Assembly (NCBI GenBank): GCA_032124015.1
Contig: JAQBEH010000049.1
Coordinates: 12,458 to 76,457, forward strand
Source of the DNA: Acidobacteriota bacterium
GTDB taxonomy: Bacteria; Acidobacteriota; Polarisedimenticolia; Polarisedimenticolales; DASRJG01
Length of the DNA stretch: 64,000 nucleotides
Direction of reading: 5' to 3'
Shown: piece by piece, positions 6,590-59,270 of the stretch
Layout of the letters: every line of letters begins with the position of its first letter
Numbering within the stretch: position 1 is the stretch's first letter
The notes under the pieces: model-generated
What the model saw: only the letters and a program-made list of their open reading frames with translations
Databases searched by the model: none
Told to the model about the DNA's origin: nothing
Made by a program: the position numbers and the translations under genes

Positions 6590-6615
6590 CACGATTTTCG
6601 CGTACCGACTCGACG

Positions 6616-6644
6616 GAACGGCCCCCGGCTCTCGGGGGCCGTTC
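6616..6644. terminator. bidirectional GC-rich hairpin between convergent genes
   Basis: GAACGGCCCCCG-gctct-CGGGGGCCGTTC, a perfect 12-bp stem. It lies 27 nt after the + gene stop and 3 nt before the glgP stop codon. Confidence 0.6.
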
Positions 6645-6647
6645 GTG

Positions 6648-8840: not shown

Positions 8841-8967
8841 CGCAACTCCTGGCCGCCCATCGTTATCAAAGCGGCGGCCCGCAATATAGAACGCGCGGCG
8901 CACCCCGACCATTCGGAATCCCAAGAGGGCGCGTGGCCTTGGCCCGGGTGATAATCTTCCGCGCGTC

Positions 8968-11004: not shown

Positions 11005-11028
11005 CCGCTAACTCTAGCTGCTCCGCCC

Positions 11029-11056
11029 TTGCGAGGGGGGACGACGGCCCTATAAT
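11029..11056 (+). promoter_or_regulatory. sigma70-like promoter candidate for speA
   Basis: TTGCGA (11029..11034), 16-nt spacer, perfect TATAAT (11051..11056). A GGAGAG SD sits at 11091..11096 before ATG 11102. Confidence 0.4.
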
Positions 11057-11101
11057 CCGCCCATCCGTTGCCATGGTGGGTTCGGGTGTGGAGAGTCCGA
11101 C

Positions 11102-15424: not shown

Positions 15425-15504
15425 GGGCGAGGAGCATAGAGGACTCCTTGCGGCCTGGCCACCGCGGAGGTTATCGTGCCACGGCACGTGGCGAAGGGGC
15501 GATC

Positions 15505-26900: not shown

Positions 26901-29002
26901 GAGGCGGTACTGGGCGGCGCCGGTGGTTTCTCGGGTACCACGAGCGTCCTGTCTCCCCGCGCCAGCTCGTTCCCGTCGGAGGACACCGTGATGATGAAGT
27001 GATAGGTGCCCGCGCCGAGCATTCGAGGCGGAATCAGGTCGACGATCTGCCCGCAGCGCTCGGTCGAAAGGTCGAGCGTCGTCGTTCCGACCGGCGTCGA
27101 CGTCTCACCCACCAGCGTGCGCACGACCTTCAGGGGCCTCTTTTGGTCCTTGGCCCGACAGACGAGCGCGATCACCGCGGTGGGGGATTCGCCGCGAAGA
27201 ACCTCGTCCTCGGCGACGACAACGGCCCCTCGGGTCCGGCTGTGACCGTTCCTCAGAAAACCTCCGGTCCTTGGCTGAGAGACGGCGATCGGACTGAGGC
27301 TCGCCAGCTCGGCGTCGAGCTTCGGCCAGCTGCCGTGAACTTCCTTCGACGACAAGGAGTCGGTTTGGATCTCGTGCGCGACGGCGACCAGATCGTAGTC
27401 CCCCGGAGCGAAGTCCATGTCCTTTTCGAAGATGACGGGCGTATTGGGGAGCGAGACCTGGATGCGCCCCGAGCCGTCCTGCCAGACGATCCCCTTCGAT
27501 ACGAGAGACGCGCCGAGGTCCCAGGTGGTGATGGGGACCGGACTCCCGGCGATCGCAACCTGAACTCGCGCCGTGAAATGTCCGTCCTTGTAGGCGATCG
27601 GGATGACGCCGACGCGGATGTTCGCGTCGCTCGCGCCGGTCGCCGTTGGCGCCGCGAAAGCCGAAAGGACGCGGCCCGTGAGGCGGGTGGCTTCGCTCTG
27701 GATCACGAGGCGCCCGCGCGTGGTCGATTTCACTTTGGGGCGTTTGACCTCGACGCTGACCGTGAGCGCCTCGTCCTGCGGGAAACCCTTGGGGTCGAAA
27801 CTCAGGAGGTACACGCAGGACATATCGCCGAGAATCTGCGAGGCCATCTTCGCCGGCGTGATCCCGTTGATGAACGACCGACCTCCCGTTTCGGCCGCGA
27901 GCGAGCCCAGCGTGGTTTGAGCGTCTCTCGTGCGCTGCGAGTTGAGGCCCGGCGGGGCACTGTTTCCCAGTCTGTTGGGATTGCCCCCTCCGCCGCCGCT
28001 CGGGGAACTGCGCGACTGGATGAACGATTCGGTGCCGGTCATCCCCTGGCCTTCGATGGTGTAAAACCGGATCCCGAGTCCGGAGGCTTCGTTCATGACC
28101 CTGTCCAGCGGGAGCGCACCCATCGCGGCGTCGGCCATCACCGAGAGCGCATCCGCGGGCGCCTTCCCGTTGGCGTCCGTGAGGACCGTCCCGCCAAAGA
28201 ACGAGAGGTAATGCTCACCCGCGTTTTGCCTCATGGTGTCGGCGAAGTAGAGGACCGATTTCGGCGAATCGAGCTCGGAGAGGCGACCCAACACCATGCT
28301 GAGCCGGCGAAGTTCTTTTTCCTGTTTCCACCTCTCCTCCGAAGCGAAACGGCTCGCGAGCGAAAGGGCGGAATCGATGCTCCGGTCGAGCTCGAGGATG
28401 ATGTCGGTCATCCGGCTTTCTTCCAAACTGGCGTAAGTGTCGAAGGTGCTGTTGTCGTCGACCATCTTGGCGAGCGCCGCCTCGAGCCGGGCCACGTCGG
28501 AGGTGAGGGGCACGAGCGTTTTCAGGTTGGCGGCGCTGACGACGATCATCGCCCGCTGCCCGCCGGCCAAGAGCTTGGGGAGCATTTCGCGCGCCGCGTC
28601 GATCGCGCCTCTCCGTCCCGACTGGGTCAGATGCGGCATGTCGAAGTACAGGAGGTACGTCGCCACGCTCGGTCTCCCGACCACGGTTGGCGGCTTGGCA
28701 TCCGCGGGGGCTTCGGCCGGCGCTTCCGGGAGGGCCGCGCCCCGGGCGACCGGCTCTGCTACGCACAGATCGTCGATCAGAAGATTCGGGACGAGCTTGT
28801 GATTCAGTCGCACCTCGAAATCGGCGGCGGTCAACCCGGAGATGCCGCCCTTCGGCCCGGAGACGGTGACGTCGAGCTGCGCGAGGCGCGTGGAGGCTCG
28901 CTCGACCAATCCGACGTCTTTCGGAGTCTCTTGGGGATCGGCCGCCAGGGCCGCGGCCGCGAGCGCCGCTGCCACAATCGAAACCACGGTCCGTCGGGTC
29001 AC
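26897..29002 (-). CDS. secreted VWA-domain protein with VWFA-related acidobacterial-type N-terminal domain
   Basis: Signal peptide [21 protein letters not shown]. The N-terminal [27 protein letters not shown] matches the TIGR03436-style domain, followed by a VWA-like core ([10 protein letters not shown]...). The GTG start overlaps the SDR stop (GTGA). Confidence 0.75.
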
Positions 29003-29787
29003 CGTGCGTCGCTCCGACGGTGCACGTTCGTCGCCGACGCCTGGTCCGTGGGGAGGATCACGGTCTCCGCGATATTGACGTGGGGCGGACGGGTCGCGAC
29101 GTAAACGATGAGCTCGGCCACGTCCTCCGGCCGGAGGGGTGTCATGCCGCGATAGACGGCGGAGGCGCGATCGGCGTCGCCGTGAAAACGGACCAGGCTA
29201 AACTCCGTCTCAGCGACCATCCCCGGATCGACCGTCGCGACGCGAACGCCCGTTCCGAGCAGATCGAGCCTCAGGCCTTCGTTCAGGGCCCGGACGGCGT
29301 GCTTCGAGGCGCAGTACACGCTTCCTCCCGGGTAGACTTGGCGGCCGGCGATCGAGCCCAGGTGAATCACGGTTCCCCGGCCTCGCGCCACGAGCAGAGG
29401 GACGACCGCGCGGTTGACGTGCAAGACGCCCTTGACGTTGGTGTCGATCATCTCGTCCCAGTCGTCCCGCGATCCCTCGTGGAGCTTGTCGAGCCCGCGC
29501 GAGAGGCCCGCGTTGTTCACGAGAACCTCGACCGCTTTCCACGATTCAGGCAGCGCATCGACCGCGGCGGACACCGCGCCGGCCTCTCGCACGTCCAGTG
29601 CGAGGAGCCTCACGTCCGACGCCCCGGCCGCGCGAAGCTCGGGTTCCAGCGCCTTCAGGTGGGGGAGCCGGCGTGCCGCAAGCAGCAGCCTCGCGCCTTC
29701 GCCTGCAAACGCGCGGGCGCACGCTGCACCGATGCCGGTGCTGGCCCCTGTGACGAGAACGACCTGATCGGCGAGCCGCGACGGCAT
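28999..29787 (-). CDS. short-chain dehydrogenase/reductase (YdfG-like, NADP-dependent)
   Basis: Start at MPSRLADQVVLVTGASTGIGAA (TGxxxGxG). Also carries NNAG and the catalytic YCASKHAV (YxxxK). Confidence 0.9.
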   Translation of the reverse strand: MPSRLADQVVLVTGASTGIGAACARAFAGEGARLLLAARRLPHLKALEPELRAAGASDVRLLALDVREAGAVSAAVDALPESWKAVEVLVNNAGLSRGLDKLHEGSRDDWDEMIDTNVKGVLHVNRAVVPLLVARGRGTVIHLGSIAGRQVYPGGSVYCASKHAVRALNEGLRLDLLGTGVRVATVDPGMVAETEFSLVRFHGDADRASAVYRGMTPLRPEDVAELIVYVATRPPHVNIAETVILPTDQASATNVHRRSDAR

Positions 29788-29902
29788 GGGTGAGTCCTCC
29801 CGAGTTGAGCGAGCCAGCTTACCGCAGCTTCGAAACTCGCCGCCCGGTATGGCCCCGCGTCGTCTTACGGCGTATAAGGGGCGGACCGGAGGGGGAACGG
29901 CA

Positions 29903-42587: not shown

Positions 42588-43871
42588 CTAGCCGGCGCCC
42601 CCCGACAGGACGACTGCTTCGCCGCCGTAGAGGCTCGACGGGAAGAGGATCGGAAGCAGCTCGTGAAGGAACTGGCGGCGCTTGTACGCCGCGTGGCTCG
42701 CGAAATGCGTGTCGTAGAGCGTGCTCAGGTACGCCTCGAGCGGGAAGATCTGAATCTCGACCGAGAACATGTAGGGAACGTCCGACGACGGGTCGTCCAT
42801 CAGGATGTCGACGATTTCCTTGAGCACGAGAAACCCACTCGACGATTGCGGGTCGAGGCGGGCGCGATCGCGGCTTCCGGACAGCGTGTCGATCCGATCG
42901 CGGCATCGGAGCGGTCCGCCAAAGGCGGAAACGAGCCTCCGTTCCAACGCGTAGGTCTGGGAACGGTCCCCGACGATGAACATGGCCCCCAGAAGGTCCT
43001 GGACCATACGCGGATCGGGGATCGCCCTGCGGATCAGCTTGGAGAGGATCGATCCGCTGTGCCGTCCTAGTCCCGGCCAGCGCGGGGACTCGGCAATGCG
43101 GATCCAGCCTTCGTCGGCGCGCTTGTCGGTCTCCGGGTCCGCTTCACGTTTGAAACGGGTCCGGTAGTGAAAGATCTCGATCGCCGGATCGCGTCCTTCG
43201 GCCGGGAGCTTTCGCGGCCGGAAACGGAACGCGCGCGCGCCGGGACCTACGACTTCGACTTCGTCCGAATTTTGGACCTCGGAGAACAGAGCGTCTTTGA
43301 CGATCGACTCGAACCGGACGAGGTGCTTCGGGCCGTCGCGCACCGCCCGCGAATGGTCGATGTCGAAGAGGAGCTTTGCGAGGTAGAGCTTTCGCTGCGC
43401 CTCGTAGCGCGCGCGTGTGTGCGGTCCCTCGAACGTCGCCTTGAGCAGGTCGCGAATCGTGCTCGCGCCGCGGGTTTCGGGGAGCGGCGCGAGATGCCGC
43501 GCGAGCGAATCGGGCACGAGCCGCAGCAGATCGTTCAGGTAGGCGTCGGCATCGTGGAAATAGGGGGCGAGGTCGACGGCGGTTGAGGACCGGCTGCCGG
43601 CCGGCATCACGTACCCGCGGACGACGCGCTCGAACACGACGGGGTCGCGCATCATCCGGCGGTACGTGTCGATCCAGAGGCGCGCGAGCGCGGGATGGCG
43701 GCTCGGGAGCCGAGGGTCGAGCAACGGATGGGCTTCGTACGCCGCGGCGAGCTGCGCGTCGGGTGTGGGCGCGGGGCGTCGAGAAGTCTCTGTCACGGTA
43801 GTTCTTTCGCCCCGCGAGAGTACCAAAGTGCGAGGTGGGGTGCGAGCGCGTGCTAATCTGGCCGTTCTCAT
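42588..43871 (-). CDS. hypothetical protein with divergent RelA/SpoT-like (RSH synthetase-fold) C-terminal domain
   Basis: The C-terminal 150 aa carry, in canonical order and spacing: [14 protein letters not shown] (cf. GRxKxxxSxxxK), DLLGAMFIV (cf. DxxGxRxI), RDRIDT...[11 protein letters not shown] (cf. DYI..PK..GYxSxH), VEIQIFP (cf. EIQIRT) and SHAAYK (cf. H..YK). The start is uncertain: ATG 43871 lies only 15 nt from the divergent tpx, and there is an in-frame GTG at 43796. Confidence 0.65.
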
Positions 43872-43885
43872 ACGGAGGATCCTGC

Positions 43886-44389
43886 ATGGCCAACATCACG
43901 CTCAAGGGCAATCCCTTCCATACGTCCGGAGAGCTCCCTGCGGTCGGGGCGCCGGCTCCGAACTTCCGCCTCGTCACGGCCGACCTTCAAGACGTCACCC
44001 TCGACACCTACCGGGGAAAAACCAAGGTCTTGAACATCGTCCCGAGCCTGGACACCCCGGTTTGCGCGGCCTCCGCGCGCAAGTTCAACGAAAAGGCCGC
44101 TTCGATCAGGGACGCCGTGGTGCTCGTCGTTTCGGCGGACCTGCCGTTCGCGATGAAGCGTTTCTGCACGACCGAGGGCCTTCACAACGTGCTGCCGCTT
44201 TCGATGATGCGCGGCCGCAACTTCGCGAAGGAATACGGGACGCTCATCACCGACGGTCCACTCGAAGGGATCTCCGCGCGCGCGGTGGTGGTCATCGACG
44301 CGAACGACAAGGTCGTCTACACGCAACTCGTAAAGGAAATCGGCGAGGAGCCGAACTACGACGCCGCGCTCGCCGCGATCGCGAAGTAG
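43886..44389 (+). CDS. tpx: thiol peroxidase (atypical 2-Cys peroxiredoxin Tpx)
   Basis: Start at [18 protein letters not shown], with the peroxidatic-Cys context [12 protein letters not shown] and the resolving-Cys context [19 protein letters not shown] is present. Confidence 0.95.
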
Positions 44390-46304: not shown

Positions 46305-48119
<1,815 letters not shown>

Positions 48120-48150
48120 GCCGTAGATTAGTTGCGAAGGAGACAGAACG

Positions 48151-48975
48151 ATGTCCAAGAAGAACCGGGAGCGCCGCGCAGGCGAAGGCGGCGATGATTC
48201 AGCAGGCGGCGGGGGAGGCGGGAGCATGGCTTGGCTCCCCATCCTCCTGGCTTCGGGTGCGTTGGTGCTGGGCTTTGTGGCCTGGACCGACACCAAGAAG
48301 GTCAAAGACGACACCTTGAAGCGTCTCGTCGACATGGATACGAAGCTCATCCAGATGCAGACGCAAGTCGCCAACGCCGCCAAGGCCAAGCCGGCGCCGC
48401 AGCAGGGTCCGGACCCGAACAAGGTCTACGCCGTCAATACGGCCGGCTCACCCTCCAAGGGGAACCCGACCGCGCCGATCGTCATAGCCGAGTTTTCCGA
48501 CTTCCAGTGACCTTTCTGCTCGAGGGTCGGTCCGACCCTCAATCAGATCGAGAAGGTTTACGGCGATCAGGTCAAGGTGGTCTGGAAGAATCTCCCGCTG
48601 TCGTTCCATCCGAATGCGATGCCGGCGGCGCTCGCGGCCATGGCCGCGAACGATCAGGGCAAGTTCTGGGAGATGCACGACAAGATCTTCGAGAACCAAA
48701 AAACGATGAACCGCGATCAGTACATCGCCTACGCCAAAGAGCTGAAGCTCGACGTGGCGAAGTTCACGAAAGCGTTGGACGACGCCGCGTTCAAAGCACA
48801 GATCGAGGCCGACATGGCCGACGCGGGCAAGCTCGGCGTCAGCGGGACGCCGGGATTTTTCGTCAACGGGAAGTTCCTCTCGGGCGCCAAGCCGTTCGGG
48901 GAGTTCGCGACGGCCATCAACGCCGAGCTGAAGCGGCTCAACCTGCCGATCCCTGCGGGGGCGCCGGCCAGCTAG
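48151..48975 (+). CDS. membrane-anchored DsbA-family thiol:disulfide oxidoreductase, probable selenoprotein (UGA 48508..48510 read as Sec; active site U-P-F-C)
   Basis: ORFs 48151..48510 and 48577..48975 are in the same frame and are separated only by one TGA. Read-through gives ...PIVIAEFSDFQ-U-PFCSRVGPTLNQIEKVYGDQVKVVWKNLPLSFHPNAMPAALAAMAANDQGKFWEMHD..., the standard DsbA/Thioredoxin_4 layout with the TGA exactly at the first Cys of CPFC. An N-terminal TM helix (WLPILLASGALVLGFVAW) is present, and a SECIS-like hairpin follows. Confidence 0.75.
48516..48546 (+). promoter_or_regulatory. bacterial SECIS-like stem-loop
   Basis: It starts 11 nt after the UGA. The upper stem is GAGGGUC/GACCCUC (7 bp, 48522..48528 / 48534..48540) with apical loop GGUCC (G in the first positions, followed by U). 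The lower pairing is CUG/CAG across an internal loop. Confidence 0.55.
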
Positions 48976-48985
48976 CGCTCCGGCA

Positions 48986-49026
48986 CCGGACGTCGAAAAG
49001 GGGAGTGTCCCCTTTTCGACATCCGG
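48986..49026 (+). terminator. long perfect hairpin after the DsbA-like gene
   Basis: CCGGA-c-GTCGAAAAGGGGA-gtg-TCCCCTTTTCGAC-a-TCCGG, giving a 13-bp perfect core stem. It begins 11 nt after the stop codon. Confidence 0.6.
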
Positions 49027-49059
49027 TACCGGGACGCTCCCGGCTAGAATGCTCGGCTG

Positions 49060-50526
49060 ATGTCCTCACGCCTACGAATCCTCATCCTCAGCGCCGAAGT
49101 CGCCCCGTTCGCCAAGACGGGAGGCCTGGGGGATGTGGCGGGAGCGCTCCCCAAAGCGCTCGCAAGCCTCGGCCACGACGTGCGCGTGGTCATGCCCGCG
49201 TATCAGGCGCAAGAGCGAGCGGTGCGAGCCGGGGAGGGCGGATTCGCCCCGCTTCCCGGCACGTTGACGGTCCCCACGGGTGGGGGGCCGATTGAGGCCG
49301 GAGTCATCCAGACGGTGCTTCCCGGGAGCGACGTTCCCGTCTACCTCATCGCGGAGCGCAGCCTCTTCGACCGGCCGAACATCTACGGCTACGACGACGA
49401 TCCGTACCGGTTTGCCTTCTTCTCGCGCGCCGCGCTCGAGCTCACGGCTGCTTTGGGCTTTCGTCCCGACGTCGTGCACGCGCACGACTGGCACTCCGCG
49501 CCCGCGGTGATGTGGCTCGACACCGCGGGGCGCGTCGACGGCCGGTTCGGCGATGTCGCGACGGTGTTCACGATCCACAACCTCGCGCATCAGGGGCGCA
49601 GTTCGCGGCGCGTTGCGCGCTACCTCGGCGTCGACGTCCCGCCGCTGCTCGACGAGAGCGGTTGGGACGAGGTCAACTTCATGGCGCGGGGGATCGCTCA
49701 CGCGACGCTGGTTTCCACCGTCAGTCCGACCTACGTGCGCGAGATCATGACGCCTCAAGGCGGCAACGGCCTCGACCCGCTCCTTCGCGCCCGGCAACAC
49801 GACGTCCACGGCGTCCTGAACGGCCTCGACTACGACGTCTGGAATCCGGCGACCGACCCGAGCCTCGTCCTCGATTTCGACGCGGCGCGGCCCGATCGGC
49901 GCGTGGCGAACAAGCTGGCGCTGCAGGATCGATTGGGACTGCAGCGAGACGCGAGGGTTCCGCTGGTCGGGATGGTCACGCGGCTCGACGCGCAAAAGGG
50001 AATGGAGATCACGGGGCACGTGATCCACCTCCTGATGAGCGGCCTGGCAGGCGAGGCGCAGTTTGTCGTGTTGGGGACCGGGGCCAAGCGGTACGAGGAT
50101 GCCTTCGCGCACCTGGCCGGCTACCACCCCCGCAAGATGGCCGCGGTATTGGCCTTCTCCTCGGATCTGGCGCCGCAAATCTACGCCGGGAGCGATCTGT
50201 TCCTGATGCCGTCCCTGTTCGAGCCGTGCGGATTGGGGCAGCTCATCGCCATGCGCTACGGCAGCGTGCCGGTCGTGCGCAGCACGGGAGGTTTGGCCGA
50301 CACCGTAGGGGACGGGCACACCGGATTCACCTTTCACGAGTTCACGGCCGATGCGTTTTGGATGGCCCTGCAGCGCGCGCTTCTCGTGCACAACACGGAC
50401 GCGGAGGCGTGGGCGAGGCTGCAACGCAACGGGATGGCGGCCAACTTCTCGTGGGCCGACGCGGCCTACGGTTACGAGCAGCTTTACGAGCGGGCGATCT
50501 CCCGCACGCGAACGGCCCGCGGATGA
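49060..50526 (+). CDS. glgA: glycogen (starch) synthase, GT5
   Basis: RILILSAEVAPFAKTGGLGDVAGALPKAL (KTGGL motif), with PSLFEPCGLGQL near the C-terminus. Confidence 0.95.
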   Translation: MSSRLRILILSAEVAPFAKTGGLGDVAGALPKALASLGHDVRVVMPAYQAQERAVRAGEGGFAPLPGTLTVPTGGGPIEAGVIQTVLPGSDVPVYLIAERSLFDRPNIYGYDDDPYRFAFFSRAALELTAALGFRPDVVHAHDWHSAPAVMWLDTAGRVDGRFGDVATVFTIHNLAHQGRSSRRVARYLGVDVPPLLDESGWDEVNFMARGIAHATLVSTVSPTYVREIMTPQGGNGLDPLLRARQHDVHGVLNGLDYDVWNPATDPSLVLDFDAARPDRRVANKLALQDRLGLQRDARVPLVGMVTRLDAQKGMEITGHVIHLLMSGLAGEAQFVVLGTGAKRYEDAFAHLAGYHPRKMAAVLAFSSDLAPQIYAGSDLFLMPSLFEPCGLGQLIAMRYGSVPVVRSTGGLADTVGDGHTGFTFHEFTADAFWMALQRALLVHNTDAEAWARLQRNGMAANFSWADAAYGYEQLYERAISRTRTARG

Positions 50527-52631
50527 AGGCGCCGATCCGGTTGGCTCTGATCTGGCATTTCCATCAGCCCGACTACACCGACCCCGAGACGTCCGCACCC
50601 ATCATGCCCTGGACGCGTCTCCATGCGCTCAAGGATTACGCCGACATGGCCGCGTTCCTCGCGCGTCATCCGACGATACGCGCCACCTTCAACGTCGTGC
50701 CGACGCTTCTCGATCAGATGCAAGCGCTCGCCTCGGGGGGACTGCGTCCGGATCCGTTTCTGGCCCTCGCGCTGAAAGATCCTGCCGAACTCACCTTCGA
50801 GGAGCGGGCCTTCGTCATCGGTCACTTCTTCTCGTTGAATCGCGACATGATGGCGGTGGGCCTCAAGCGATTGAACGAACTGCATGCCCTGCGTGGCGAC
50901 GAGCCGGCCGCAGCGATCGGAAAGGTCGTGGTTGATCGCTTCGACGACCAGGCGCTTTGCGACCTCCAGGTGCTGTTCCACCTCGCCTGGAGCGGGCCGC
51001 TATTGCAGGCCGACCCTTTGATCGCGGGCCTTCGCGCGAAGGGGCGAGGCTACACTGCAGACGACAAGCAAGCGCTTTTTACGCGCCACGGGGAGTTTCT
51101 CGCCGACGTCATCCCGCGGTGGCGGCGGCTCTACGATGCCGAGCAGATCGAGCTGTCGGTCACGCCTTACTACCACCCGATTCTGCCCCTCCTGTGCGAC
51201 CTGAATTCGGCGCTCGAGGCCCTTCCCGACCTGCGTCTCCCGGCGGCCCGATTCCAGGGTGTGGAGGATGCCGATCTACAGCTCGTGAAGGGGATGGAGG
51301 CGTTCCATGCGACCTTCGGCCGGAAGGCCGCGGGCGGATGGCCGTCGGAAGGCGCGATCTCCGAGCGGTCGCTCGAACGGATGGGTGCTGCGGGGTATCG
51401 CTGGGCCGCGAGCGACGAGGACGTTCTCTTCGCGTCGATTGGCGAGGTCCTCCCGGCCGAACAGACCGCTAGGGAAGCACGGCGGGCCGAGTTGCTCTAC
51501 CGTCCGTGGCGCTACAGCGACGGCCCCGTGCTCTTGTTCCGGGACCACGATCTTTCCGACCGGATCGGATTCGCCTACGCCACGCGCGCTCCGGAAGACG
51601 CGGCGCGCGATTTCCTCTCGCGTTTGTTGCATCTGCGCGCGCTACTCCCCGACGACGACACGCCCTACGTCGTCAGCGTGATCCTGGACGGCGAGAACGC
51701 GTGGGAGCACTACCCGGAGCACGCCGCGCCGTTTTTCGATGCGCTCTACGGCGCGCTCGCCGCCGAGTCCGGTATCGAAACCGTCACCGCGTCGGAGGCG
51801 GCGAGGGCGGACAGCGCGCGGCCCCTTCCCCGCGTTGTCGCCGGATCGTGGATCTATCGCAACCTCGCGACCTGGGTCGGGCATCCCGAAAAAAACCGTG
51901 CATGGGAATTGCTGGCCGCGGCCCGCGAGGCGATCGTAAGAGCCGCGGGAGCACCGCGATGGGACGACCCGGCGTGGCGCATGATCTTGGCGGCCGAGGG
52001 GAGCGATTGGTTCTGGTGGTACGGCGACGATCACCCGACCGAGTACGGCGCGGAATTCGACGCGGGATTTCGCGACAAGCTGCGGGGGGCCTATGCCGCG
52101 GCCGGGTTGCCCGTGCCGTCCGTGCTCGACGAGCCGATCCGCAAAACCCAGGTTCGAGGCCAGATGCCGCCTTCGGGGCCGGTGCATGCCCGGATCGACG
52201 GGCGCGTCGGCGACTACTTCGAATGGCGCACCGCGGGGCACGTGACGTGCATCTACGGCGCGATGCACGCCGCGGTCCGCTTCGCGCGAGAGCTGTTTTT
52301 CGGCACCGACGGGACGGCGCTTTTCGTGAGGCTCGATCCGTTCGAGCCGGGGGCGCTGGACGGCACGACGATCGTGTTGCGAACGCCGGCGGCAGACGCG
52401 GCTGCTCTCCAGTCCAAGGCCGGCGAATCTTCGGGGGATCTGATCACCGCGCTCGACCGCGTGGTCGAACTGTCCGTGCCGTTCGATCGTCTCGCCGAAG
52501 CAGGAGCGCCCGCGCGTTTCGCGATCGAGATCAGAAACGCGGACGGCGCCACGCAGCGGATCCCGGGAGACGGCTTCGTCGAGTTGGCGCGGCCGGATGA
52601 CGACCCGTCCCGTTACGATTGGTTTGTCTGA
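50523..52631 (+). CDS. glycoside hydrolase family 57 protein (alpha-glucan branching/processing enzyme)
   Basis: Start at MKAPIRLALIWHFHQPDY (overlaps the glgA stop, ATGA). GH57 regions: HQP.Y, GQIELSVTPYYHPILPLL, WPSEGAISE, ILDGENAWEHY. Confidence 0.9.
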   Translation: MKAPIRLALIWHFHQPDYTDPETSAPIMPWTRLHALKDYADMAAFLARHPTIRATFNVVPTLLDQMQALASGGLRPDPFLALALKDPAELTFEERAFVIGHFFSLNRDMMAVGLKRLNELHALRGDEPAAAIGKVVVDRFDDQALCDLQVLFHLAWSGPLLQADPLIAGLRAKGRGYTADDKQALFTRHGEFLADVIPRWRRLYDAEQIELSVTPYYHPILPLLCDLNSALEALPDLRLPAARFQGVEDADLQLVKGMEAFHATFGRKAAGGWPSEGAISERSLERMGAAGYRWAASDEDVLFASIGEVLPAEQTAREARRAELLYRPWRYSDGPVLLFRDHDLSDRIGFAYATRAPEDAARDFLSRLLHLRALLPDDDTPYVVSVILDGENAWEHYPEHAAPFFDALYGALAAESGIETVTASEAARADSARPLPRVVAGSWIYRNLATWVGHPEKNRAWELLAAAREAIVRAAGAPRWDDPAWRMILAAEGSDWFWWYGDDHPTEYGAEFDAGFRDKLRGAYAAAGLPVPSVLDEPIRKTQVRGQMPPSGPVHARIDGRVGDYFEWRTAGHVTCIYGAMHAAVRFARELFFGTDGTALFVRLDPFEPGALDGTTIVLRTPAADAAALQSKAGESSGDLITALDRVVELSVPFDRLAEAGAPARFAIEIRNADGATQRIPGDGFVELARPDDDPSRYDWFV

Positions 52632-52668
52632 CCCGTCGTCTAGAATGGGCGCTTTCCAAGGAGTGACG

Positions 52669-53694
52669 ATGAAGACGGTAGGCATCTTGACCGGCGGCGG
52701 GGACGCGCCGGGGTTGAACGCGGTGATTCGAGCGATCGTCAGACGCTCGCTCCCGCGCGGGTACCGGATGGTCGGCATCCGTCACGGCTGGCGAGGCCTG
52801 CTGGAAAAAGAAACCGTCGAACTCGACGCGCAGGCGGCCTCCGGGATCCTCCATCGCGGAGGGACGATTCTGGGCACCTCGCGCACGAATCCGTACAAGA
52901 CGGTCGAGGACGCCCGCGCGGCCGAGGCGAACTTCACCGCGTTGGGACTCGACGCGTTGATCGCCATCGGTGGCGAGGACACGTTAGGCGTCGCGGCGAA
53001 ACTGTCGGCGGCGGGTTTTCCTGTCGTGGGTGTCCCGAAGACGATCGACAACGACCTGTCCGGCACCGACACTACGTTCGGCTTCAACACCGCGGTCGCG
53101 ATTGCCACCGAGGCGATCGACCGGCTTCACTCGACCGCCGAGTCTCACGACCGCGTCATCGTCTGCGAGGTGATGGGCCGCCACGCGGGATGGATCGCGC
53201 TGCACTCCGGGATGGCCGGCGGGGCCGATTTCATCCTGATCCCCGAGCGCCCGATCGACATCGAGGCGGTCTGCGCGGCCGTTTTACGCCGGCGCGCCCG
53301 CGGGATCCACTTCTCGATCATCGTCGCGGCCGAGGGGGCGATCCTCCCCGAGGGTGAGATCAAAAAAAAGACCGAGACCGACGCGTTCGGCCACGTCTTG
53401 CTCGGCGGCATCGGAGAACGGCTCGCAAAAGAGATCGAAAAGCGCACGGGGAGCGAGACGCGCTCGGTTCAGCTCGGGCACGTCCAACGCGGCGGCACGC
53501 CGACCGCATTCGACCGCTGGCTCGGCTCCCGCTACGGTCTGCTTGCGGCCGACATGGTGCACGACGGACGTTTCGGCATGATGGCCGCGTATTGCGGGGG
53601 CGTTTTCATGCCCGTGCCGCTGGCGTCGGCGGTCGCGTCGTTGAAGACGGTGCCTCCTGAGCTCATCGATCTGGCCTCCGCACTGTTCGCGTAA
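52669..53694 (+). CDS. pfk: 6-phosphofructokinase (GGEDT / PKTIDND type; ATP versus PPi specificity not decidable by eye)
   Basis: MKTVGILTGGGDAPGLNAVIRA, IGGEDTLG, PKTIDNDL, MGRHAGWIAL. An AAGGAG SD sits upstream. Confidence 0.95.
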   Translation: MKTVGILTGGGDAPGLNAVIRAIVRRSLPRGYRMVGIRHGWRGLLEKETVELDAQAASGILHRGGTILGTSRTNPYKTVEDARAAEANFTALGLDALIAIGGEDTLGVAAKLSAAGFPVVGVPKTIDNDLSGTDTTFGFNTAVAIATEAIDRLHSTAESHDRVIVCEVMGRHAGWIALHSGMAGGADFILIPERPIDIEAVCAAVLRRRARGIHFSIIVAAEGAILPEGEIKKKTETDAFGHVLLGGIGERLAKEIEKRTGSETRSVQLGHVQRGGTPTAFDRWLGSRYGLLAADMVHDGRFGMMAAYCGGVFMPVPLASAVASLKTVPPELIDLASALFA

Positions 53695-53735
53695 CGCGCG
53701 CGGCAGGTACCGCCGGCCCGCGGGAAGGGAATGAG

Positions 53736-54767
53736 ATGTCCGAGCTTCGTCACGATCCGCTCTCGAAACGCTGGGTGATCATCGCCAACGAGAGGAGCCG
53801 CCGCCCCGAAGACTTCGCTGATGGCTGGGAGGCGCGGCGCGAGGGCGGGTTCTGCCCGTTTTGTCCCGGCAGCGAGGACAAGACCCCCGGCGAGATCGCC
53901 GCGGTAAGGCCCGGCGGCGGGGGGGCGAACGGCCCCGGCTGGGACGTGCGGGTCATCCCGAACAAGTACCCGGCGCTGTCCATCGAGGGGACGCTCGACC
54001 GTCAGGGGGTCGGCCTCTACGACCGGATGCGCGGTGTCGGAGCGCACGAGGTCGTGATCGAATCGCCCCTCCACGACCTGCATATGGGGGACATGGAGCC
54101 CGGCGCCCTAACCACCGTGCTCGCCCTCTGCCAGGACCGCATGCGCGACCTCGGCCGGGACCCGCGGTTCAAGTACGTGCTCCTGTTCAAAAACCACGGC
54201 GCCGCCGCCGGGGCCACGCTGAGCCACCCGCACCTGCAGCTCATCGCGACGCCGGTGACCCCGCGCGCCATCTCGGTCGAGCTGGATTCCGCTCGCGAGC
54301 ATTTTCACCTGAAGGAGCGCTGCATCTTCTGCGACATGCTCGAGCAGGAGCTCCAATCGCGCGATCGCATCGTGGCGTTGGACGAGCACTTCGCCGTCGT
54401 CGCCCCCTACGCGTCCCGCTTCCCTTTCGAGCTGATGATCCTCCCGCGCCGGCACAACCATGCGTTCACCGACGAGTCGCGCCTGACCCTGGCGGCGCTC
54501 GCGCGAACGCTGAAAGAAACGCTCGCCCGGTTGAAGAGCGTCCTGCGCGATCCGCCCTACAATTTCGTGCTGCACTCGAGCCCGAACACCGAGTTACTGG
54601 TGCGCCGCCGCCACTACTGGGACACCCTGCCGTTCGATTTCCACTGGCACATCGAGATTCTCCCCCGCCTTACCCGCGTCGCGGGGTTCGAGTGGGGGAC
54701 CGGGTTCTACATCAACCCGACCGCACCGGAAGAAGCGGCGACGTTCCTGCGTGACGCGGTGATCTAG
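53736..54767 (+). CDS. galT: galactose-1-phosphate uridylyltransferase family (GalT-type HIT nucleotidyltransferase; possibly a sugar-nucleotide phosphorylase)
   Basis: MSELRHDPLSKRWVIIANERSRRP, zinc site CPFCPG, active site SHPHLQLIA (HxHxQ). Confidence 0.85.
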   Translation: MSELRHDPLSKRWVIIANERSRRPEDFADGWEARREGGFCPFCPGSEDKTPGEIAAVRPGGGGANGPGWDVRVIPNKYPALSIEGTLDRQGVGLYDRMRGVGAHEVVIESPLHDLHMGDMEPGALTTVLALCQDRMRDLGRDPRFKYVLLFKNHGAAAGATLSHPHLQLIATPVTPRAISVELDSAREHFHLKERCIFCDMLEQELQSRDRIVALDEHFAVVAPYASRFPFELMILPRRHNHAFTDESRLTLAALARTLKETLARLKSVLRDPPYNFVLHSSPNTELLVRRRHYWDTLPFDFHWHIEILPRLTRVAGFEWGTGFYINPTAPEEAATFLRDAVI

Positions 54768-54818
54768 GGACCAATTCGGGAGCGTCTCGGACTCGAGGCG
54801 CGACCCAACCGCGGGTAC

Positions 54819-54844
54819 AATTCCAGCGGGTCTTCCGCGGAATT
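54819..54844 (+). other. hairpin between galT-like and kinase genes (possible attenuator/terminator)
   Basis: AATTCC-a-GCGG-gtctt-CCGC-GGAATT, flanked by further partial complementarity (GCGGGTAC...GTAGCCCGC). Confidence 0.3.
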
Positions 54845-54872
54845 CCTCGCCGTAGCCCGCTGGTGCCGGACG

Positions 54873-56702
54873 ATGCGAAGGAGGGCGATGGGGGCAATCA
54901 CGCACAAGGACCAGCGAAGCAAGTTCGACGCGTTCTTCCCGGGGCGGGCGGACGAATTCTTGCGCATGCTCGGCGCCTGGTCGATCCCGTTCGCCCTATT
55001 GGACGCCGATGACGCGGTGCTCTTTTGGAACCTGGGCGCCGTCAAGTTCTACGGCCTCGGCGAGGAGGAGGCCCTCGGAAAGAAGTTCGCCGAGCTCGTA
55101 GCCGAGGAAGCGACGATCCCCGAAGCTCCGCTCGGTGGAGTCAGGACCCGGCGTTACGAAGCGCTGCATCAAAGTGCGGACGGCATCGAGCTTCCCGTCA
55201 TGGTCACGCGCACCGATCTCCCGGCAAGCGACGGGAGGGAGGGGGCGTTCGTCCTCATCACCGACCTGACGGAGTCCAAGTCGCTCGAACGGCGGCTGGC
55301 GCGTCGTGTCGCGCAACTGTCGATCATCCGCGAGATCGGCGAGTGCCTGCAATCGGCGATGAGTCCCGAGCGGATCCTGCACACCATTCTGGTCGGCGCG
55401 ACGGCCAGCATGGGCCTGCGGTTTAACCGCGCCTTCTTGCTCTTGGTCGACGAGCGCCACGGCGTGCTTCGCGGACGCGACGCCATCGGCCCCGCGGACA
55501 CGGAGGAGGCGCAGAGAATCTGGTCCCGCCTCTCCACGGGCGGAAAGACGCTGCGCGATCTCGTGGATGACTACGAGCCGCTCATCGACGGGGAGGAGCC
55601 GCGCGTTCTCGAGATCGCACGCCTGCTCTCCGCCAAGCTCGATGACGAGACCTCCTTCGTCGTCGCCGCGCTGAACGCGACGGCGACGACGCGCGTGGTC
55701 GACGGGCACGTGGTCTCGGGCGACGCACCGTCCCCTTATCGAATCATCGGCATATTGGGCATCGACGCCTTCGTGGCGGTGCCGCTGACGACCGATGGAA
55801 AGCCGGTGGGCCTGCTTCTCGCGGACAATGCGATCACGCGCCGCGCGATCACCGACGAAGACGTGGACATCCTGGAACTGCTCGGCCTGCAGGCCGGCCA
55901 AGCGTTGGCGCGGGCGCATCTGACCGAAGAGCTGGCCCGCCAGGTCGCCTCGCTCGAGGCGGCAACGAGAGAACTGAGACGCAACCAGGAGAGGGTGGTG
56001 CGATCGGAGCGCTTGAGCGCCATCGGCGAGATGGCCGCCCGCGTGGCGCACGAAATCCGGAATCCGCTCGTCGCGATCGGCGGCTTCGCCCGCTCGCTCC
56101 TGCTTCGTCCCGAAGAACAAGATTCAGCGACAAGGGAGGCGCTGGAGATCATCGTGAACGAGGTGCGGCGGCTCGAGACCATCGTCAAGGAGGTTCTCGA
56201 GTTCTCCCGTCCGGCGCCGCCCAAGATCGGATCGGTACCCTTGAGGCGGCTCGCCCAGGAGGCGCTCGACCTGCTGGCGTGGGAGCTCGATCACGTGGGG
56301 GTCGTCGGACGGGTCGAAGAGGCGCCCGGCACGCCCGAAGCCGCCGCCGACAGCGACCAGATTTTCCACGCGGTCATCAATCTGCTGCGAAACGCGGTGC
56401 ACGCGATGCCGCATGGGGGCGAGCTCCTCGTCCGCCTGCGCGGCGTTCCCTACGGTGTCGAAATGGCGATCGTGGACACCGGCGTCGGCATGTCGGAAGA
56501 TGTCCTCGCACGTGCTCAGGAGGCGTTTTACACAACGAAACCAAACGGATCCGGCCTCGGCCTGACCATCGCGTCGCTCATCGCGCGCGATCACAACGGC
56601 GAGGTCCGGATCGAGAGCCGGGAAGGGGAGGGCACGACGGTCACGCTGCGTCTCCCCGCGGCGACGGAGGGTGAGACCGATGCCCAAGATCCTGATCATT
56701 GA
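54873..56702 (+). CDS. PAS-GAF sensor histidine kinase
   Basis: N-terminal PAS-like region and a central GAF-like region. H-box MAARVAHEIRNPL, N-box LLRNAVHAM, G-boxes DTGVGM and GSGLGL. Confidence 0.85.
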   Translation: MRRRAMGAITHKDQRSKFDAFFPGRADEFLRMLGAWSIPFALLDADDAVLFWNLGAVKFYGLGEEEALGKKFAELVAEEATIPEAPLGGVRTRRYEALHQSADGIELPVMVTRTDLPASDGREGAFVLITDLTESKSLERRLARRVAQLSIIREIGECLQSAMSPERILHTILVGATASMGLRFNRAFLLLVDERHGVLRGRDAIGPADTEEAQRIWSRLSTGGKTLRDLVDDYEPLIDGEEPRVLEIARLLSAKLDDETSFVVAALNATATTRVVDGHVVSGDAPSPYRIIGILGIDAFVAVPLTTDGKPVGLLLADNAITRRAITDEDVDILELLGLQAGQALARAHLTEELARQVASLEAATRELRRNQERVVRSERLSAIGEMAARVAHEIRNPLVAIGGFARSLLLRPEEQDSATREALEIIVNEVRRLETIVKEVLEFSRPAPPKIGSVPLRRLAQEALDLLAWELDHVGVVGRVEEAPGTPEAAADSDQIFHAVINLLRNAVHAMPHGGELLVRLRGVPYGVEMAIVDTGVGMSEDVLARAQEAFYTTKPNGSGLGLTIASLIARDHNGEVRIESREGEGTTVTLRLPAATEGETDAQDPDH

Positions 56703-57045
56703 AGACGAGAAAAACCTTCGCATACTCTACCAACAAGACTTCGAGCGCGACGGCTTCGAGGTGGTCACGGCGGCGACCGCCGCGGAGGGGCTGGCGATGG
56801 TTCAGGACGAAGCGCCCGACCTCGTCGTCATGGACATCCGCCTTCCGGGGATGGATGGGCTCGAGGCGATGAGCCGTCTTCTCGACAAGAACCCGAAGAT
56901 CCCGGTCGTCCTGAATTCAGCCTACTCGTCCTACAAGGACAGTTTCATGAGCTGGTCGGCGGACGCTTACGTCGTGAAGTCGGCCGACACCGGCGAGCTG
57001 CGCGCGCGGGTGCGAGAGCTGATCGCCTCCCGCGCGGACAGCTGA
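56680..57045 (+). CDS. single-domain (CheY-like) response regulator
   Basis: MPKILIIEDE...DLVVMDIRLPGMDGLE...PVVLNSAYS...YVVKS has the canonical DD/D/S/K receiver residues and no output domain. It overlaps the kinase 3' end by 23 nt, and its stop overlaps the glgC start (TGATG). Confidence 0.85.
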   Translation: MPKILIIEDEKNLRILYQQDFERDGFEVVTAATAAEGLAMVQDEAPDLVVMDIRLPGMDGLEAMSRLLDKNPKIPVVLNSAYSSYKDSFMSWSADAYVVKSADTGELRARVRELIASRADS

Positions 57046-58289
57046 TGGTCGATCGCCGCCGGACCCTGTTGGGCGACACGCTGGCGATCGTCATGGCCGG
57101 CGGTCAGGGGGAACGCCTCTACCCCCTGACGCGGGATCGCGGGAAGCCCGCCGTCCCGTTCGGGGGCATCTACCGGGTGATCGACTTCACCCTGTCGAAC
57201 TGCCTTAACTCGGGGCTGCGAAAGATCTACGTCCTCACCCAATACAAGTCCGGAAGCCTGGAGCGCCACGTTCGGATCGGCTGGGGACCGCTGTTCAACC
57301 ACGAGCTCGACGAGTGGATCCAGTGCGTCCCGCCGCAGCTGCGCGTGGGCGAGCGCTGGTACCTGGGGACCGCCGATGCGGTCTACCAAAACGTGTACCT
57401 TTTGGAGCGGGAGCGTCCTCGCTACGTCGTCGTCCTTTCGGGCGATCACATCTACAAGATGGACTACGCGCGACTGATCGCGCGCCACGAAGCCAACGAC
57501 GCGATCGTAACGGTCGCGGCGGTCGAGGTCCCGATCGCGGAGGCTTCGGCGGTCGGAGTGATTGCGGTGGACGAGGAGTCGCGCATCACCGCGTTTCAGG
57601 AAAAGCCGAAAGATCCCATTCCCCTTCCGGGGCGTCCCGGCACCGTGCTCGCCAACATGGGCGTCTACGTTTTCGACACCGAAACGCTCGTGCGGGCGCT
57701 CGCCGTCGATGCGCGCCGCGAGTCGCGCCACGACTTCGGTTACAACATCCTTCCCGCCCTCGTCGATACGAAGAAGGTGTTCGCCTACTCGTTCATCGAC
57801 GAAAACAAGAAAGAAACGGCCTACTGGCGCGACGTCGGCACCCTGGATTCGTACTACGACGCCAGCATGGATCTGGTCGCCGTCGAGCCCGTCTTCAACC
57901 TGTACGACAAGAACTGGCCGATCCGGACGATGGCCCAACAACTGCCCCCCGCCAAGACGGTCTTCGCGCAGGAAGAGCCCGGCGGACGTCTGGGGATCGT
58001 CCTCGACTCGCTCGTCAGCGGCGGCGCGATCGTCAGCGGCGGCCGTGTCGAGCGCTGCGTCCTCGGGCCCGAGGTTCGCGTCAATTCGTACGCCAAGGTC
58101 GTCGACAGCGTGCTGATGGACAATGTCGACATCGGGCGTCACGCGCGCGTCACGAAGGCGATCATCGACAAGGGCGTCCGCATTCCCGCGAGCTTCGTCG
58201 TCGGCGAAGATCCCGAAGAAGACAAGCGGCGGTTCACGGTCACCCCGGGTGGCGTCGTCGTCATCCCTCGTGGGACACAGTTGGACTAG
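57045..58289 (+). CDS. glgC: glucose-1-phosphate adenylyltransferase
   Basis: LAIVMAGGQGERLYPLTRDRGKPAVPFGGIYRVIDFTLSNCLNSG and LTQYKSGSL, with a left-handed beta-helix C-terminus. Confidence 0.95.
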   Translation: MVDRRRTLLGDTLAIVMAGGQGERLYPLTRDRGKPAVPFGGIYRVIDFTLSNCLNSGLRKIYVLTQYKSGSLERHVRIGWGPLFNHELDEWIQCVPPQLRVGERWYLGTADAVYQNVYLLERERPRYVVVLSGDHIYKMDYARLIARHEANDAIVTVAAVEVPIAEASAVGVIAVDEESRITAFQEKPKDPIPLPGRPGTVLANMGVYVFDTETLVRALAVDARRESRHDFGYNILPALVDTKKVFAYSFIDENKKETAYWRDVGTLDSYYDASMDLVAVEPVFNLYDKNWPIRTMAQQLPPAKTVFAQEEPGGRLGIVLDSLVSGGAIVSGGRVERCVLGPEVRVNSYAKVVDSVLMDNVDIGRHARVTKAIIDKGVRIPASFVVGEDPEEDKRRFTVTPGGVVVIPRGTQLD

Positions 58290-58343: not shown

Positions 58344-59270
58344 GTGCCGCTCCACGACGTCGTGATCATCGGTTCCGGTCCCGCCGGCCTGACGGCCGCC
58401 CTGTACACCGCGCGCGCGGGCCTCGCACCCGTCGTGGTCGAAGGGTTGATGGCGGGTGGGCAGCTCATGCAAACGACCGATGTAGAGAACTATCCGGGTT
58501 TCCCCGAAGGGATCATGGGCCCCGAATTGATGGAGAAGTTCAAGAAACAGGCGGAGCGCTTCGGCACATCGTTCGTTTCGGGGGACGTCACCCGCGTCGA
58601 TTTCTCCACGCGGCCGTTCACCGTGACGACCGACGAGGAAACCGTGACGGCCCGCTCGGTGATCATCGCGACGGGCGCCTCGCCGAAGATCCTCGACATC
58701 CTCGGCGAGAAGGAATACTCGGGGCACGGCGTGTCGTATTGCGCGACTTGTGACGGCTTTTTCTTCCGCAACCAGGAGATCGTCGTCGTCGGCGGCGGCG
58801 ACACCGCGATGGAAGAGGCAAACTTTCTGACCCGGTTCGGCTCCCGCGTGACGGTCGTGCATCGTCGCGACTCGTTCCGGGCGTCGAAGATCATGGCCGA
58901 ACGCCTCCTCGCCAACGAAAAGGTGCGCGTGCTGTGGAATTCCGCGGTCACCGAAGTCAAAGGGGACGGCGCCAAGGTCGGCTCGGTCGTCGTGAAGAAC
59001 GTGAAGACCGGCGCCCTGACGGAAGAGCCGTGCGGCGGGTTTTTCGTCGCCATCGGACACACACCGAACACGGCGCTGTTTGCGTCCCTCCTCCCCATGA
59101 GCGCCGAGGGCTATCTCACCCTCGAGGGCCATTCCTCGTACACCAACATCGAAGGGGTGTTCGCCGCGGGTGACGTGCACGATCACGTCTACCGCCAGGC
59201 GGTCACGGCCGCGGGGGCCGGTTGTCGTGCGGCCATCGATTGCGAGCGGTGGCTAGCGGCGAACGACTAG
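58344..59270 (+). CDS. trxB: thioredoxin-disulfide reductase
   Basis: VVIIGSGPAGLTAALY, redox-active CATCDG, GGGDTAMEEA. GTG start with an AGGAGG SD. Confidence 0.95.
   Translation: MPLHDVVIIGSGPAGLTAALYTARAGLAPVVVEGLMAGGQLMQTTDVENYPGFPEGIMGPELMEKFKKQAERFGTSFVSGDVTRVDFSTRPFTVTTDEETVTARSVIIATGASPKILDILGEKEYSGHGVSYCATCDGFFFRNQEIVVVGGGDTAMEEANFLTRFGSRVTVVHRRDSFRASKIMAERLLANEKVRVLWNSAVTEVKGDGAKVGSVVVKNVKTGALTEEPCGGFFVAIGHTPNTALFASLLPMSAEGYLTLEGHSSYTNIEGVFAAGDVHDHVYRQAVTAAGAGCRAAIDCERWLAAND

Follow-up and report, generated by a model that had tools for sequence, protein, structure and literature searches.

Is the TGA triplet in the middle of a DsbA-like reading frame the end of that gene, or is it decoded as selenocysteine (Sec)? 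This question is raised by positions 48151..48975 of a 64,000-nucleotide stretch of Acidobacteriota DNA (contig JAQBEH010000049.1), the whole of which was analysed and is referred to as the window. Two separate open reading frames (ORFs) are listed there, 48151..48510 (119 amino acids) and 48577..48975 (132 amino acids). A preliminary description made from the sequence had joined them into one selenoprotein gene whose TGA codon is followed by a hairpin resembling a selenocysteine insertion sequence (SECIS). The analysis reported here arrives, with a probability of roughly 90%, at one gene encoding a membrane-anchored, periplasm-facing DsbA-like oxidoreductase with Sec at U120-P-F-C123, the hairpin being its SECIS.

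One gene across a single in-frame TGA

Comparison of the ORF list with the window sequence placed both ORFs in the same frame, and the sole internal stop of 48151..48975 is the TGA at 48508..48510. When this codon is read through, a full-length DsbA-like selenoprotein gene of 274 codons and a TAG stop is obtained on the forward strand. The UGA is then codon 120, the predicted Sec that opens the U-P-F-C redox motif (48508..48519, forward strand), and the product reads ...PIVIAEFSDFQ-U-PFCSRVGPTLNQIEKVYGDQVKVVWKNLPLSFHP..., with SRVGPTL directly after U-P-F-C. The start at 48151 is backed by the N-terminal sequence MSKKNRERR, which is kept in all close orthologues, and a Shine-Dalgarno-like AAGGAG can be read from the forward strand at 48137..48142, 8 nucleotides (nt) upstream of the ATG. 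TGA ends 18 other predicted genes of the window and is therefore an otherwise normal stop in this genome; a genome-wide reassignment of TGA was rejected for this reason. The TGA at 48508..48510 is also the only one of the 64-kb window that is flanked on both sides by coding-type GC1/GC2/GC3 composition.

The adjacent GlgA protein was found on contigs of four NCBI metagenome-assembled genome (MAG) assemblies (GCA_032125035.1, GCA_032124555.1, GCA_032126535.1 and GCA_032126675.1). The copies of the gene in these assemblies show 1-3 differences from the window gene and are identical in the TGA and the hairpin. Because four independent MAG assemblies share both, an assembly error is excluded. The gene calls on record are the same in 4/4 assemblies, namely a protein of 119 amino acids without a Pfam match followed by a DSBA/Thioredoxin_4 fragment of 132 amino acids. 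At least four public MAG assemblies thus present a real conserved gene as a pair of fragments that are meaningless by themselves, and it deserves annotation as a single selenoprotein.

With Cys replacing the stop, the protein gave Pfam matches to Thioredoxin_4 (6e-26, 92 bits, residues 99-257 of 274) and to DSBA (5.5e-25; PF01323 at 88.7 bits against a gathering cut-off of 25.6). The matched domain is one continuous unit across the TGA that covers the profile end to end; it corresponds to a DsbA/Thioredoxin_4 catalytic domain at 48445..48921 on the forward strand, and neither split fragment alone constitutes a complete domain. The closest solved structures by sequence are those of DsbA (4pwp/4pwo, 4e-23), whose CPFC is aligned to U-P-F-C. 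Further sequence matches in the PDB include 7unn, BdbD (3eu3) and the ScsC-type proteins 4xvw, 4gxz and 6nen, the values ranging from 4e-23 to 1e-12 overall. A conserved Thr-Pro (cis-proline) loop, G232-T233-P234 (48844..48852, forward strand), is invariant in an alignment of 20 proteins and is aligned to the GTP of 4pwp, an alignment that covers both the U-P-F-C and the Thr-Pro motifs. By these sequence matches the protein has what defines the DsbA type, a CxxC-type motif and a Thr-Pro loop in a thioredoxin fold with a helical insertion. The Thr-Pro loop faces the active site in thioredoxin-fold enzymes, and established knowledge of the DsbA fold suggests a cis conformation for the loop at P234.

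At the N-terminus, the segment MAWLPILLASGALVLGFVA (residues 26-44; 48226..48282, forward strand) follows the basic tail KKNRERR and is a predicted signal-anchor transmembrane helix. The mean Kyte-Doolittle hydropathy over 19 residues peaks here at 2.09, compared with a maximum of 0.96 elsewhere in the protein. A lipobox Cys is absent, the first Cys-type position of the protein being residue 120. The same N-terminal architecture is kept in the database proteins P0001, P0002 and P0022, which are described below, and the positive-inside rule would place the N-terminus inside and the catalytic domain outside.

Nine orthologues were compared with the window gene in order to judge selection on both sides of the TGA. 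The ratio of nonsynonymous to synonymous substitutions (dN/dS) was 0.09-0.33 after the TGA and 0.20-0.51 before it, and in 8/9 comparisons the value after the TGA did not exceed the value before it. Purifying selection is therefore at least as strong after the TGA as before it. Each of the nine orthologues contains exactly one in-frame stop, in the same alignment column, and no frameshift. Decay of the orthologues, for which the preliminary description had proposed to look, was consequently not observed. Its other statements on the gene also agree with these results: the shared frame with TGA 48508..48510 as the only stop between the ORFs, the splitting of the gene by annotation pipelines, the continuous thioredoxin-fold domain across the UGA and the anchoring in the membrane, for which the hydrophobic segment and the conserved basic N-terminus speak. 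The stop had been assigned to the first Cys of CPFC, and 358 homologous sites do have the N-terminal Cys of their CPxC motif aligned with it.

Geometry of the hairpin

The SECIS-like upper hairpin lies at 48522..48540 on the forward strand, begins 11 nt after the TGA and is embedded in the S-R-V-G-P-T-L codons. For this hairpin and for that of Escherichia coli fdhF, nucleotides are numbered from the U of UGA as 1. An 8-bp stem, GAGGGUCG/CGACCCUC, carries the loop G23-U24-C25 (48530..48532). The hairpin had been located correctly before and had been drawn with 7 bp and a 5-nt loop; this drawing is corrected here, as G22-C26 forms a closing pair that leaves 8 bp and a 3-nt loop (the loop has 5 nt if G22-C26 is open). 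The extension of the stem by CUG/CAG, likewise noted before, is present as the lower helix UCUG/CAGA, in which 48515..48518 pairs with 48544..48547 (forward strand). This helix flanks the upper hairpin and is a weak, optional part of the structure.

The published model of the bacterial SECIS describes an apical loop of 3-9 nt, an upper stem of 4-16 bp, a G that is usually followed by G or U at the first two loop positions, a distance of 16-37 nt from UGA to loop and a minimum free energy of -7.5 kcal/mol or lower (PMC13188914). The window hairpin lies within 4/4 constraints of this model with its 3-nt loop, 8-bp stem, G23-U24, a spacing of 19 nt (nt 4-22) and -12.7 kcal/mol, which is the fold energy of the 19-nt hairpin alone. 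SECIS hairpins in general have been described with a stem of 6-8 bp and a conserved loop G about 20 nt past the UGA (PMC4605307), and G23 is found exactly 20 nt past the A of UGA. The SECIS of E. coli fdhF shares with the window element GGUC at nt 22-25, whose G23 and U24 belong to the apical loop, the location within the coding region and an upper stem that starts at about nt 15. It differs in that the fold of fdhF is interrupted at about nt 18, whereas the window stem is a perfect 8 bp; the two sequences are unrelated outside GGUC, and the window element is a predicted SelB target. The geometry expected of a bacterial SECIS, which had been asserted from the sequence, is thus matched both by the published model and by a known example.

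Conservation of the hairpin in TGA genes

The comparison drew on 160 related loci from species-representative genomes and metagenomes, in which DsbA-type active sites were located by motif. One spurious TGA match on the minus strand of L028 was left out of the TGA count. Among the resulting 394 sites, the first active-site position is TGA in 36 and TGC or TGT in 358. The 36 TGA sites, referred to as Sec genes, are spread over about 30 independent contigs from the phyla Acidobacteriota and Myxococcota, and the TGA of the window is aligned with TGA in the 35 other sites at protein identities of 42-97%. TGA genes of acidobacterial MAGs are 56-88% identical to the window protein, the best genome match being an Acidobacteriota MAG at 88% identity. 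The carriers in the Myxococcota include the cultured Paraliomyxa miuraensis.

Throughout the 36 Sec genes the 19-nt hairpin is nearly invariant, synonymous sites included; columns 16 and 19-24 show no variation and columns 17 and 18 hardly any. All 8 stem pairs are formed in 34/36 Sec genes but in only 1/358 Cys genes. This difference persists among Cys genes that encode the same RVGPTL peptide, where 8/8 pairs are formed in 1/27, and GGT at nt 22-24 is found in 36/36 Sec genes compared with 8/27 of these same-peptide Cys genes. The codon choice was inspected in the first 11 Sec genes, which use AGG (11/11), GTC (11/11), GGT (11/11), CCG (10/11), ACC or ACT, and CTC (11/11), while the codons flanking the hairpin vary freely. 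AGG is used by 0/16 Cys genes with an RVG[PA]TL peptide, and the same 16 genes show mixtures of GTC/GTG, GGC/GGT/GGA/GGG, CCC/CCG and ACG/ACC. The local folding energy of Sec genes has a median of -16.5 kcal/mol, compared with -10.8 kcal/mol for the Cys genes of the same comparison (Mann-Whitney p = 6e-5).

In the alignment of the 36 sequences, 99.3% of the cells of the upper helix are paired. Compensatory changes were found at pair 15-33 (GC to CG in L098), at pair 17-31 (GC to AU in L094 and L099) and at pair 18-30 (GC to AU in L084 and L091; five further sequences have G-U intermediates). The covariation score was reached by 0/500 shuffles, and sliding the 3' partner by 1-3 columns reduced pairing to only 29-52%. 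Together with the fixed codon choice, these results show that selection acts on the hairpin at the RNA level. The lower helix (nt 8-11 with 37-40) has 87.9% of its cells paired in 35 distinct Sec sequences. No compensatory change was found in it and it is therefore without independent support; its conservation could be explained by the F-C and Q-I codons alone. The peptide [RK]VG[PA]TL is encoded by 36/36 Sec genes compared with 27/358 Cys genes, and the putative SECIS appears in this way to constrain the protein sequence at S-R-V-G-P-T-L as well.

The hairpin motif was also searched independently of any protein motif on both strands of 1.25 Mb, comprising the window and the loci. Of 43 matches, 41 lie exactly 14 nt past an in-frame TGA and 2 lie past a TGT.

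Exchange of Sec and Cys at the active site

Sec and Cys forms of the protein are interleaved, and several Sec sequences are equally near to a Cys sequence and to another Sec sequence. In the locus L042, the Sec copy is 82% identical to a Cys paralogue within the same locus. The closest full-length database proteins, P0001 (80%), P0002 (69%) and P0022 (59%), have the same architecture as the window protein with Cys instead of Sec. The genes for P0001 and P0022 share the mdh-dsbA-glgA(-GH57-phosphofructokinase) context with the window gene and with the Sec loci of Acidobacteriota, and because of this shared context both are positional orthologues that differ by Sec versus Cys. The alternation of Cys and TGA at the active-site column, a check suggested in the preliminary description, is therefore seen both in the numbers of sites and in syntenic genes.

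The hairpin is found in several states in Cys genes. In the TGT gene at L105:1795-1830 (+) it is intact 14 nt downstream, and in the TGT gene at L006:3196-3231 (+) it retains 6/8 pairs at the same distance. These two hairpins look like relics of a recent Sec-to-Cys conversion. The DNA for P0001 (L171) reads TGC..AGG GTC GAG CCG ACC ATG, in which the rare AGG is kept, the loop is destroyed and 6/8 pairs are left; 2/8 hairpin pairs are left in the DNA for P0022. Such a series would be expected from a one-step change of TGA to TGY (Y, C or T) followed by the erosion of a useless SECIS, and it fits the dynamic exchange of Sec and Cys that has been published (PMC1794560). The Sec form appears to be ancestral in this clade, with repeated one-step TGA-to-TGY conversions that were followed by decay of the SECIS. 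Conservation of the hairpin in TGA genes, including compensatory changes, is the outcome that had been named in advance as favourable to a selenoprotein.

Three of the related loci have features of their own. In a Myxococcales MAG from Lake Baikal, L031:2776-5472 (+) is a frame of about 900 codons that encodes four DsbA-like domains in tandem. It is interrupted only by two TGAs, one at the active site of domain 1 and one at that of domain 4, and each is followed by the same SECIS. L115 contains two Sec sites, at 356 and 1001 (+), within one frame. The products of L031 and L115 would be multi-domain proteins with two selenocysteines. On the 70.9-kb metagenome contig L095, most neighbour genes at 4900-15500 align to window proteins as several overlapping pieces, a pattern that suggests numerous frameshift errors of the kind seen in long-read assemblies without correction; TGA and SECIS are intact all the same.

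Proposed decoding and function

The proposed sequence of events begins with an mRNA that probably also carries the upstream mdh gene. At UGA codon 120 the downstream hairpin would work as a bacterial SECIS, its loop presenting G23 and U24 to SelB. SelB with Sec-tRNA(Sec) would bind the hairpin through its C-terminal winged-helix domains, and Sec would be inserted without termination. The ribosome would then melt the hairpin and decode S-R-V-G-P-T-L as the start of the active-site helix. In the finished protein, the signal-anchor of residues 26-44 would put the catalytic domain outside the cytoplasmic membrane, where U120 and C123 would alternate between the selenol/thiol and the selenenylsulfide states and exchange disulfides with exported proteins.

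Catalysis as an oxidase like BdbD, MdbA or actinobacterial DsbA is somewhat favoured because most of the closest relatives of known structure are oxidases (actinobacterial DsbA/MdbA and BdbD). ScsC-type reductases are also near by sequence, and a selenenylsulfide is usually the more reducing couple. A function as an ScsC-type reductase or isomerase is possible but would be the less probable of the two.

Evidence against the assignment and alternative explanations

Several observations weigh against the assignment as a selenoprotein. The first concerns the Sec machinery. Neither the 64-kb window, nor about 10 kb past its start, nor any of about 170 loci yielded selA, selB, selD or tRNA-Sec. E. 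coli proteins were used as tblastn queries for selA, selB and selD against the window and all loci, and the sole match was a weak match to the GTPase domain in L106. None of about 40 window ORFs has a Pfam match for SelA, SelB or SelD, and ARAGORN detected only ordinary tRNA-Cys(GCA) and no tRNA-Sec in the window and 43 loci. Past the start of the window, the source MAGs carry a transporter, a DUF179 gene, a transposase and an amidase, and no sel genes. Similarly, no DsbB, VKOR, CcdA/DsbD, BdbC or ScsB partner is present among about 45 annotated window genes; redox partners are often encoded elsewhere in the genome. Sec decoding by this organism is an assumption of the present interpretation. 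It is a plausible trait of the lineage given the literature, as Sec use has been reported in Acidobacteria (three selenoprotein families) and Anaeromyxobacter has a DsbA-like selenoprotein (PMC1794560).

The second group of observations concerns the RNA. A permissive Rfam scan of 48400..48700 (E <= 10) gave no family that matches the hairpin, and Rfam is therefore taken to be without a model for this SECIS type. At the gathering threshold, a scan of the whole window gave only one tRNA and one thiamine pyrophosphate (TPP) riboswitch. The fold of 71 nt is unremarkable for a single sequence (z = -1.5, with 13/200 shuffles equally stable); one sequence can thus not decide the matter, and the significance of the hairpin rests on the comparison. 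Within the comparison, the covariation consists of only 5 cells in 3 pairs, and most of the hairpin signal is invariance that could be explained in part by shared ancestry. The RVGPTL peptide is moreover partly palindromic at the level of its codons, and Cys genes that encode it still form 5-7 of the 8 pairs.

The alternative that survives best retains recoding of the UGA by a SECIS/SelB-type route and replaces Sec by Cys or by the residue of a suppressor tRNA, so that a selC*-type tRNA-Cys(UCA) or an allo-tRNA would yield a CPFC protein. The TGA, the SECIS and the downstream constraint are equally compatible with this, and the canonical Sec machinery was, as stated, not found in the window or the fetched loci. 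In delta-proteobacteria, selC* tRNA-Cys(UCA) occurs with a dedicated SelB* and CysRS* and reads Sec-UGA as Cys in E. coli, and Acidobacteria carry allo-tRNAs that have been proposed as nonsense suppressors (PMC5389517). However, selC* has not been reported from Acidobacteria, and all selC*-bearing isolate genomes had the full Sec apparatus (PMC5389517). The only tRNA of the window is an ordinary tRNA-Cys(GCA). A costly recoding that yields Cys would also be hard to maintain, since one TGA-to-TGY change suffices to obtain it, yet TGA persists in two phyla under selection. Decoding of the UGA as Cys by a selC*-type tRNA or an allo-tRNA is thus improbable, even if it is taken together with the option that selenium switches the product between an anchored peptide of 119 residues and the full enzyme. 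If true, Cys recoding or such a switch would widen the range of SelB-type non-Sec recoding by a new phylum and by an exported enzyme.

Slightly less credible still is a true stop at the TGA, with a 119-residue anchored peptide and a separate 132-residue fragment that starts from GTG 48577, and with the hairpin as a pause or coupling element or as a by-product of encoding RVGPTL. Gene callers read exactly these two products in four assemblies, the RVGPTL codons form a partial palindrome in Cys genes too, and the z-score of the fold is weak when taken alone. Nevertheless, the codon choice of the hairpin is fixed only where the active-site codon is TGA. The 66 nt from the TGA to GTG 48577 are in frame and conserved and encode PFC and helix alpha-1, so that the fragment from GTG 48577 would be without the entire redox motif and neither fragment would be a complete domain.

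A pseudogene or a sequencing or assembly error, in which a Cys codon TGC or TGT, one base from TGA, was mutated or misread in what are for many source contigs short metagenome assemblies, is effectively refuted by the recurrence of the TGA in 35 further active sites at 42-97% identity and in four MAG assemblies independent of each other, by the alternation with Cys codons, by the downstream constraint (no other stops or frameshifts and a dN/dS of 0.09-0.33 after the TGA), by the co-occurrence of the TGA with a specific hairpin that Cys genes are without, and by the divergence of the TGA-bearing sequences, which excludes a single contaminating amplicon.

Genomic neighbourhood and other features of the window

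The gene upstream of the predicted selenoprotein gene encodes a malate/lactate dehydrogenase (mdh; 47193..48119, forward strand; Ldh_1_N/Ldh_1_C) and ends 31 nt before the dsbA-like start. The order mdh-dsbA-glgA-GH57 is conserved across the acidobacterial clade, and this synteny was found in the Sec loci L001-L004, L081-L089 and L095 and in the Cys orthologue loci L171-L173. A very stable, near-perfect stem-loop at 48970..49045 (forward strand) overlaps the TAG stop (-51.9 kcal/mol, z = -7.5, 0/200 shuffles as stable). It is placed after the second ORF and not after the TGA. A consensus terminator scan did not flag this stem-loop, which has no U-tail; it possibly ends the transcript of the mdh-dsbA unit as a terminator or stabilises this mRNA. 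Further downstream, 49060-58289 (+) is a glycogen/carbohydrate cluster with glgA, a GH57 enzyme, phosphofructokinase, a GalT-like transferase, a PAS-GAF histidine kinase with a response regulator and a glgC-like nucleotidyl transferase.

Other genes of thiol redox chemistry in the window encode a Thioredox_DsbH (DUF255) protein of 702 amino acids (24795-26900, -), an AhpC/Redoxin peroxiredoxin (43886-44389, +) and a thioredoxin-reductase-like flavoprotein (58344-59270, +). None of these three genes contains an in-frame TGA. The TPP riboswitch is located at 2904-3000 (-; 65.5 bits, above the gathering score), directly upstream of the gene for a TonB-dependent receptor with Plug and beta-barrel domains (651-2837, -), an arrangement that suggests thiamine-regulated uptake across the outer membrane. 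The tRNA-Cys(GCA) gene (3124-3198) adjoins this riboswitch. In the sister MAG assembly L168, a DDE transposase gene (11182-12348, +) lies about 2 kb past that end of the region where the TonB receptor gene is located, outside the window, and the other assemblies are without it at this place. Four ORFs of coding-type composition had no Pfam match at E <= 1e-5, namely 26900-29002 (-; 701 amino acids), 42591-43871 (-; 427 amino acids), 3232-4332 (+; 367 amino acids) and 29020-29790 (+; 257 amino acids).

Comparison with known DsbA-like proteins

The selenoprotein assignment would imply Sec decoding in this Acidobacteriota lineage and an investment of selenium in a disulfide-exchange enzyme outside the cytoplasm. 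The family offers an unusually clean natural series for the evolution of the SECIS. A near-identical hairpin is found in two phyla and restricts the choice of six codons in the active-site helix, and after the one-step change to Cys it decays in stages from an intact relic through a damaged stem and a lost loop to nothing. The current understanding is unchanged by this, since publications of 2005-2006 had already reported UxxC DsbA-like selenoproteins as well as dynamic Sec/Cys exchange.

A Sargasso Sea survey of 2005 reported UxxC selenoproteins of the DsbA-like and DsbG-like types (PMC1088965). Both types were described from bacterial genomes in 2006, when Anaeromyxobacter (Myxococcota) was listed with a DsbA-like one (PMC1794560). 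A DsbA-like selenoprotein was counted in 41 organisms in 2016 (PMC5029168), and a review of 2026 tabulates a 'DsbA-like protein form 1, PF01323, UxxC' and a 'DsbG-like protein, NF041057, UxxC' (PMC13188914). The replacement of Cys by Sec in the CxxC motif of thioredoxin-fold proteins, which the preliminary description had treated as established, is well documented by these four reports. Judged by its sequence, the window gene falls under the definition by PF01323 and UxxC and is a so far unannotated addition to a known selenoprotein type. It resembles DsbA-like form 1 in a PF01323 score above threshold, in Sec for the first Cys of CxxC, in a SECIS just downstream and in widespread Cys homologues. 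It differs in that the Sargasso set belongs to COG2761 (FrnE-like), whereas the window protein is nearer to the Thioredoxin_4/BdbD/MdbA-type branch, in its N-terminal signal-anchor and in being split in public gene calls.

The best NCBIfam match is NF041057 (Rcas_1661 family thioredoxin-like (seleno)lipoprotein; 7e-34), in which residues 68-258 are aligned with profile positions 46-246 of 247. Both are exported UxxC thioredoxin-like proteins of which Sec and Cys forms exist. The score of 117.5 bits stays below the cut-off of 190, the lipobox Cys of this family is absent, and a signal-anchor takes the place of the lipoprotein signal. Because of the low score and the signal-anchor, the window protein is regarded as a relative and not as a member of NF041057, and because the score is below the cut-off, the NCBI pipeline would not rescue the gene as a selenoprotein. 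With the DsbA/MdbA, BdbD and ScsC-type structures (4pwp, 4pwo, 7unn, 3eu3, 4xvw, 6nen and 4gxz), the window protein shares a CPxC-type motif, the helical insertion, the Thr-Pro loop and an exported or anchored location. All of these are Cys enzymes, however, and their partners VKOR, BdbC and ScsB are without a counterpart near the window gene, which stands apart from them by its predicted Sec at the first position of the motif.

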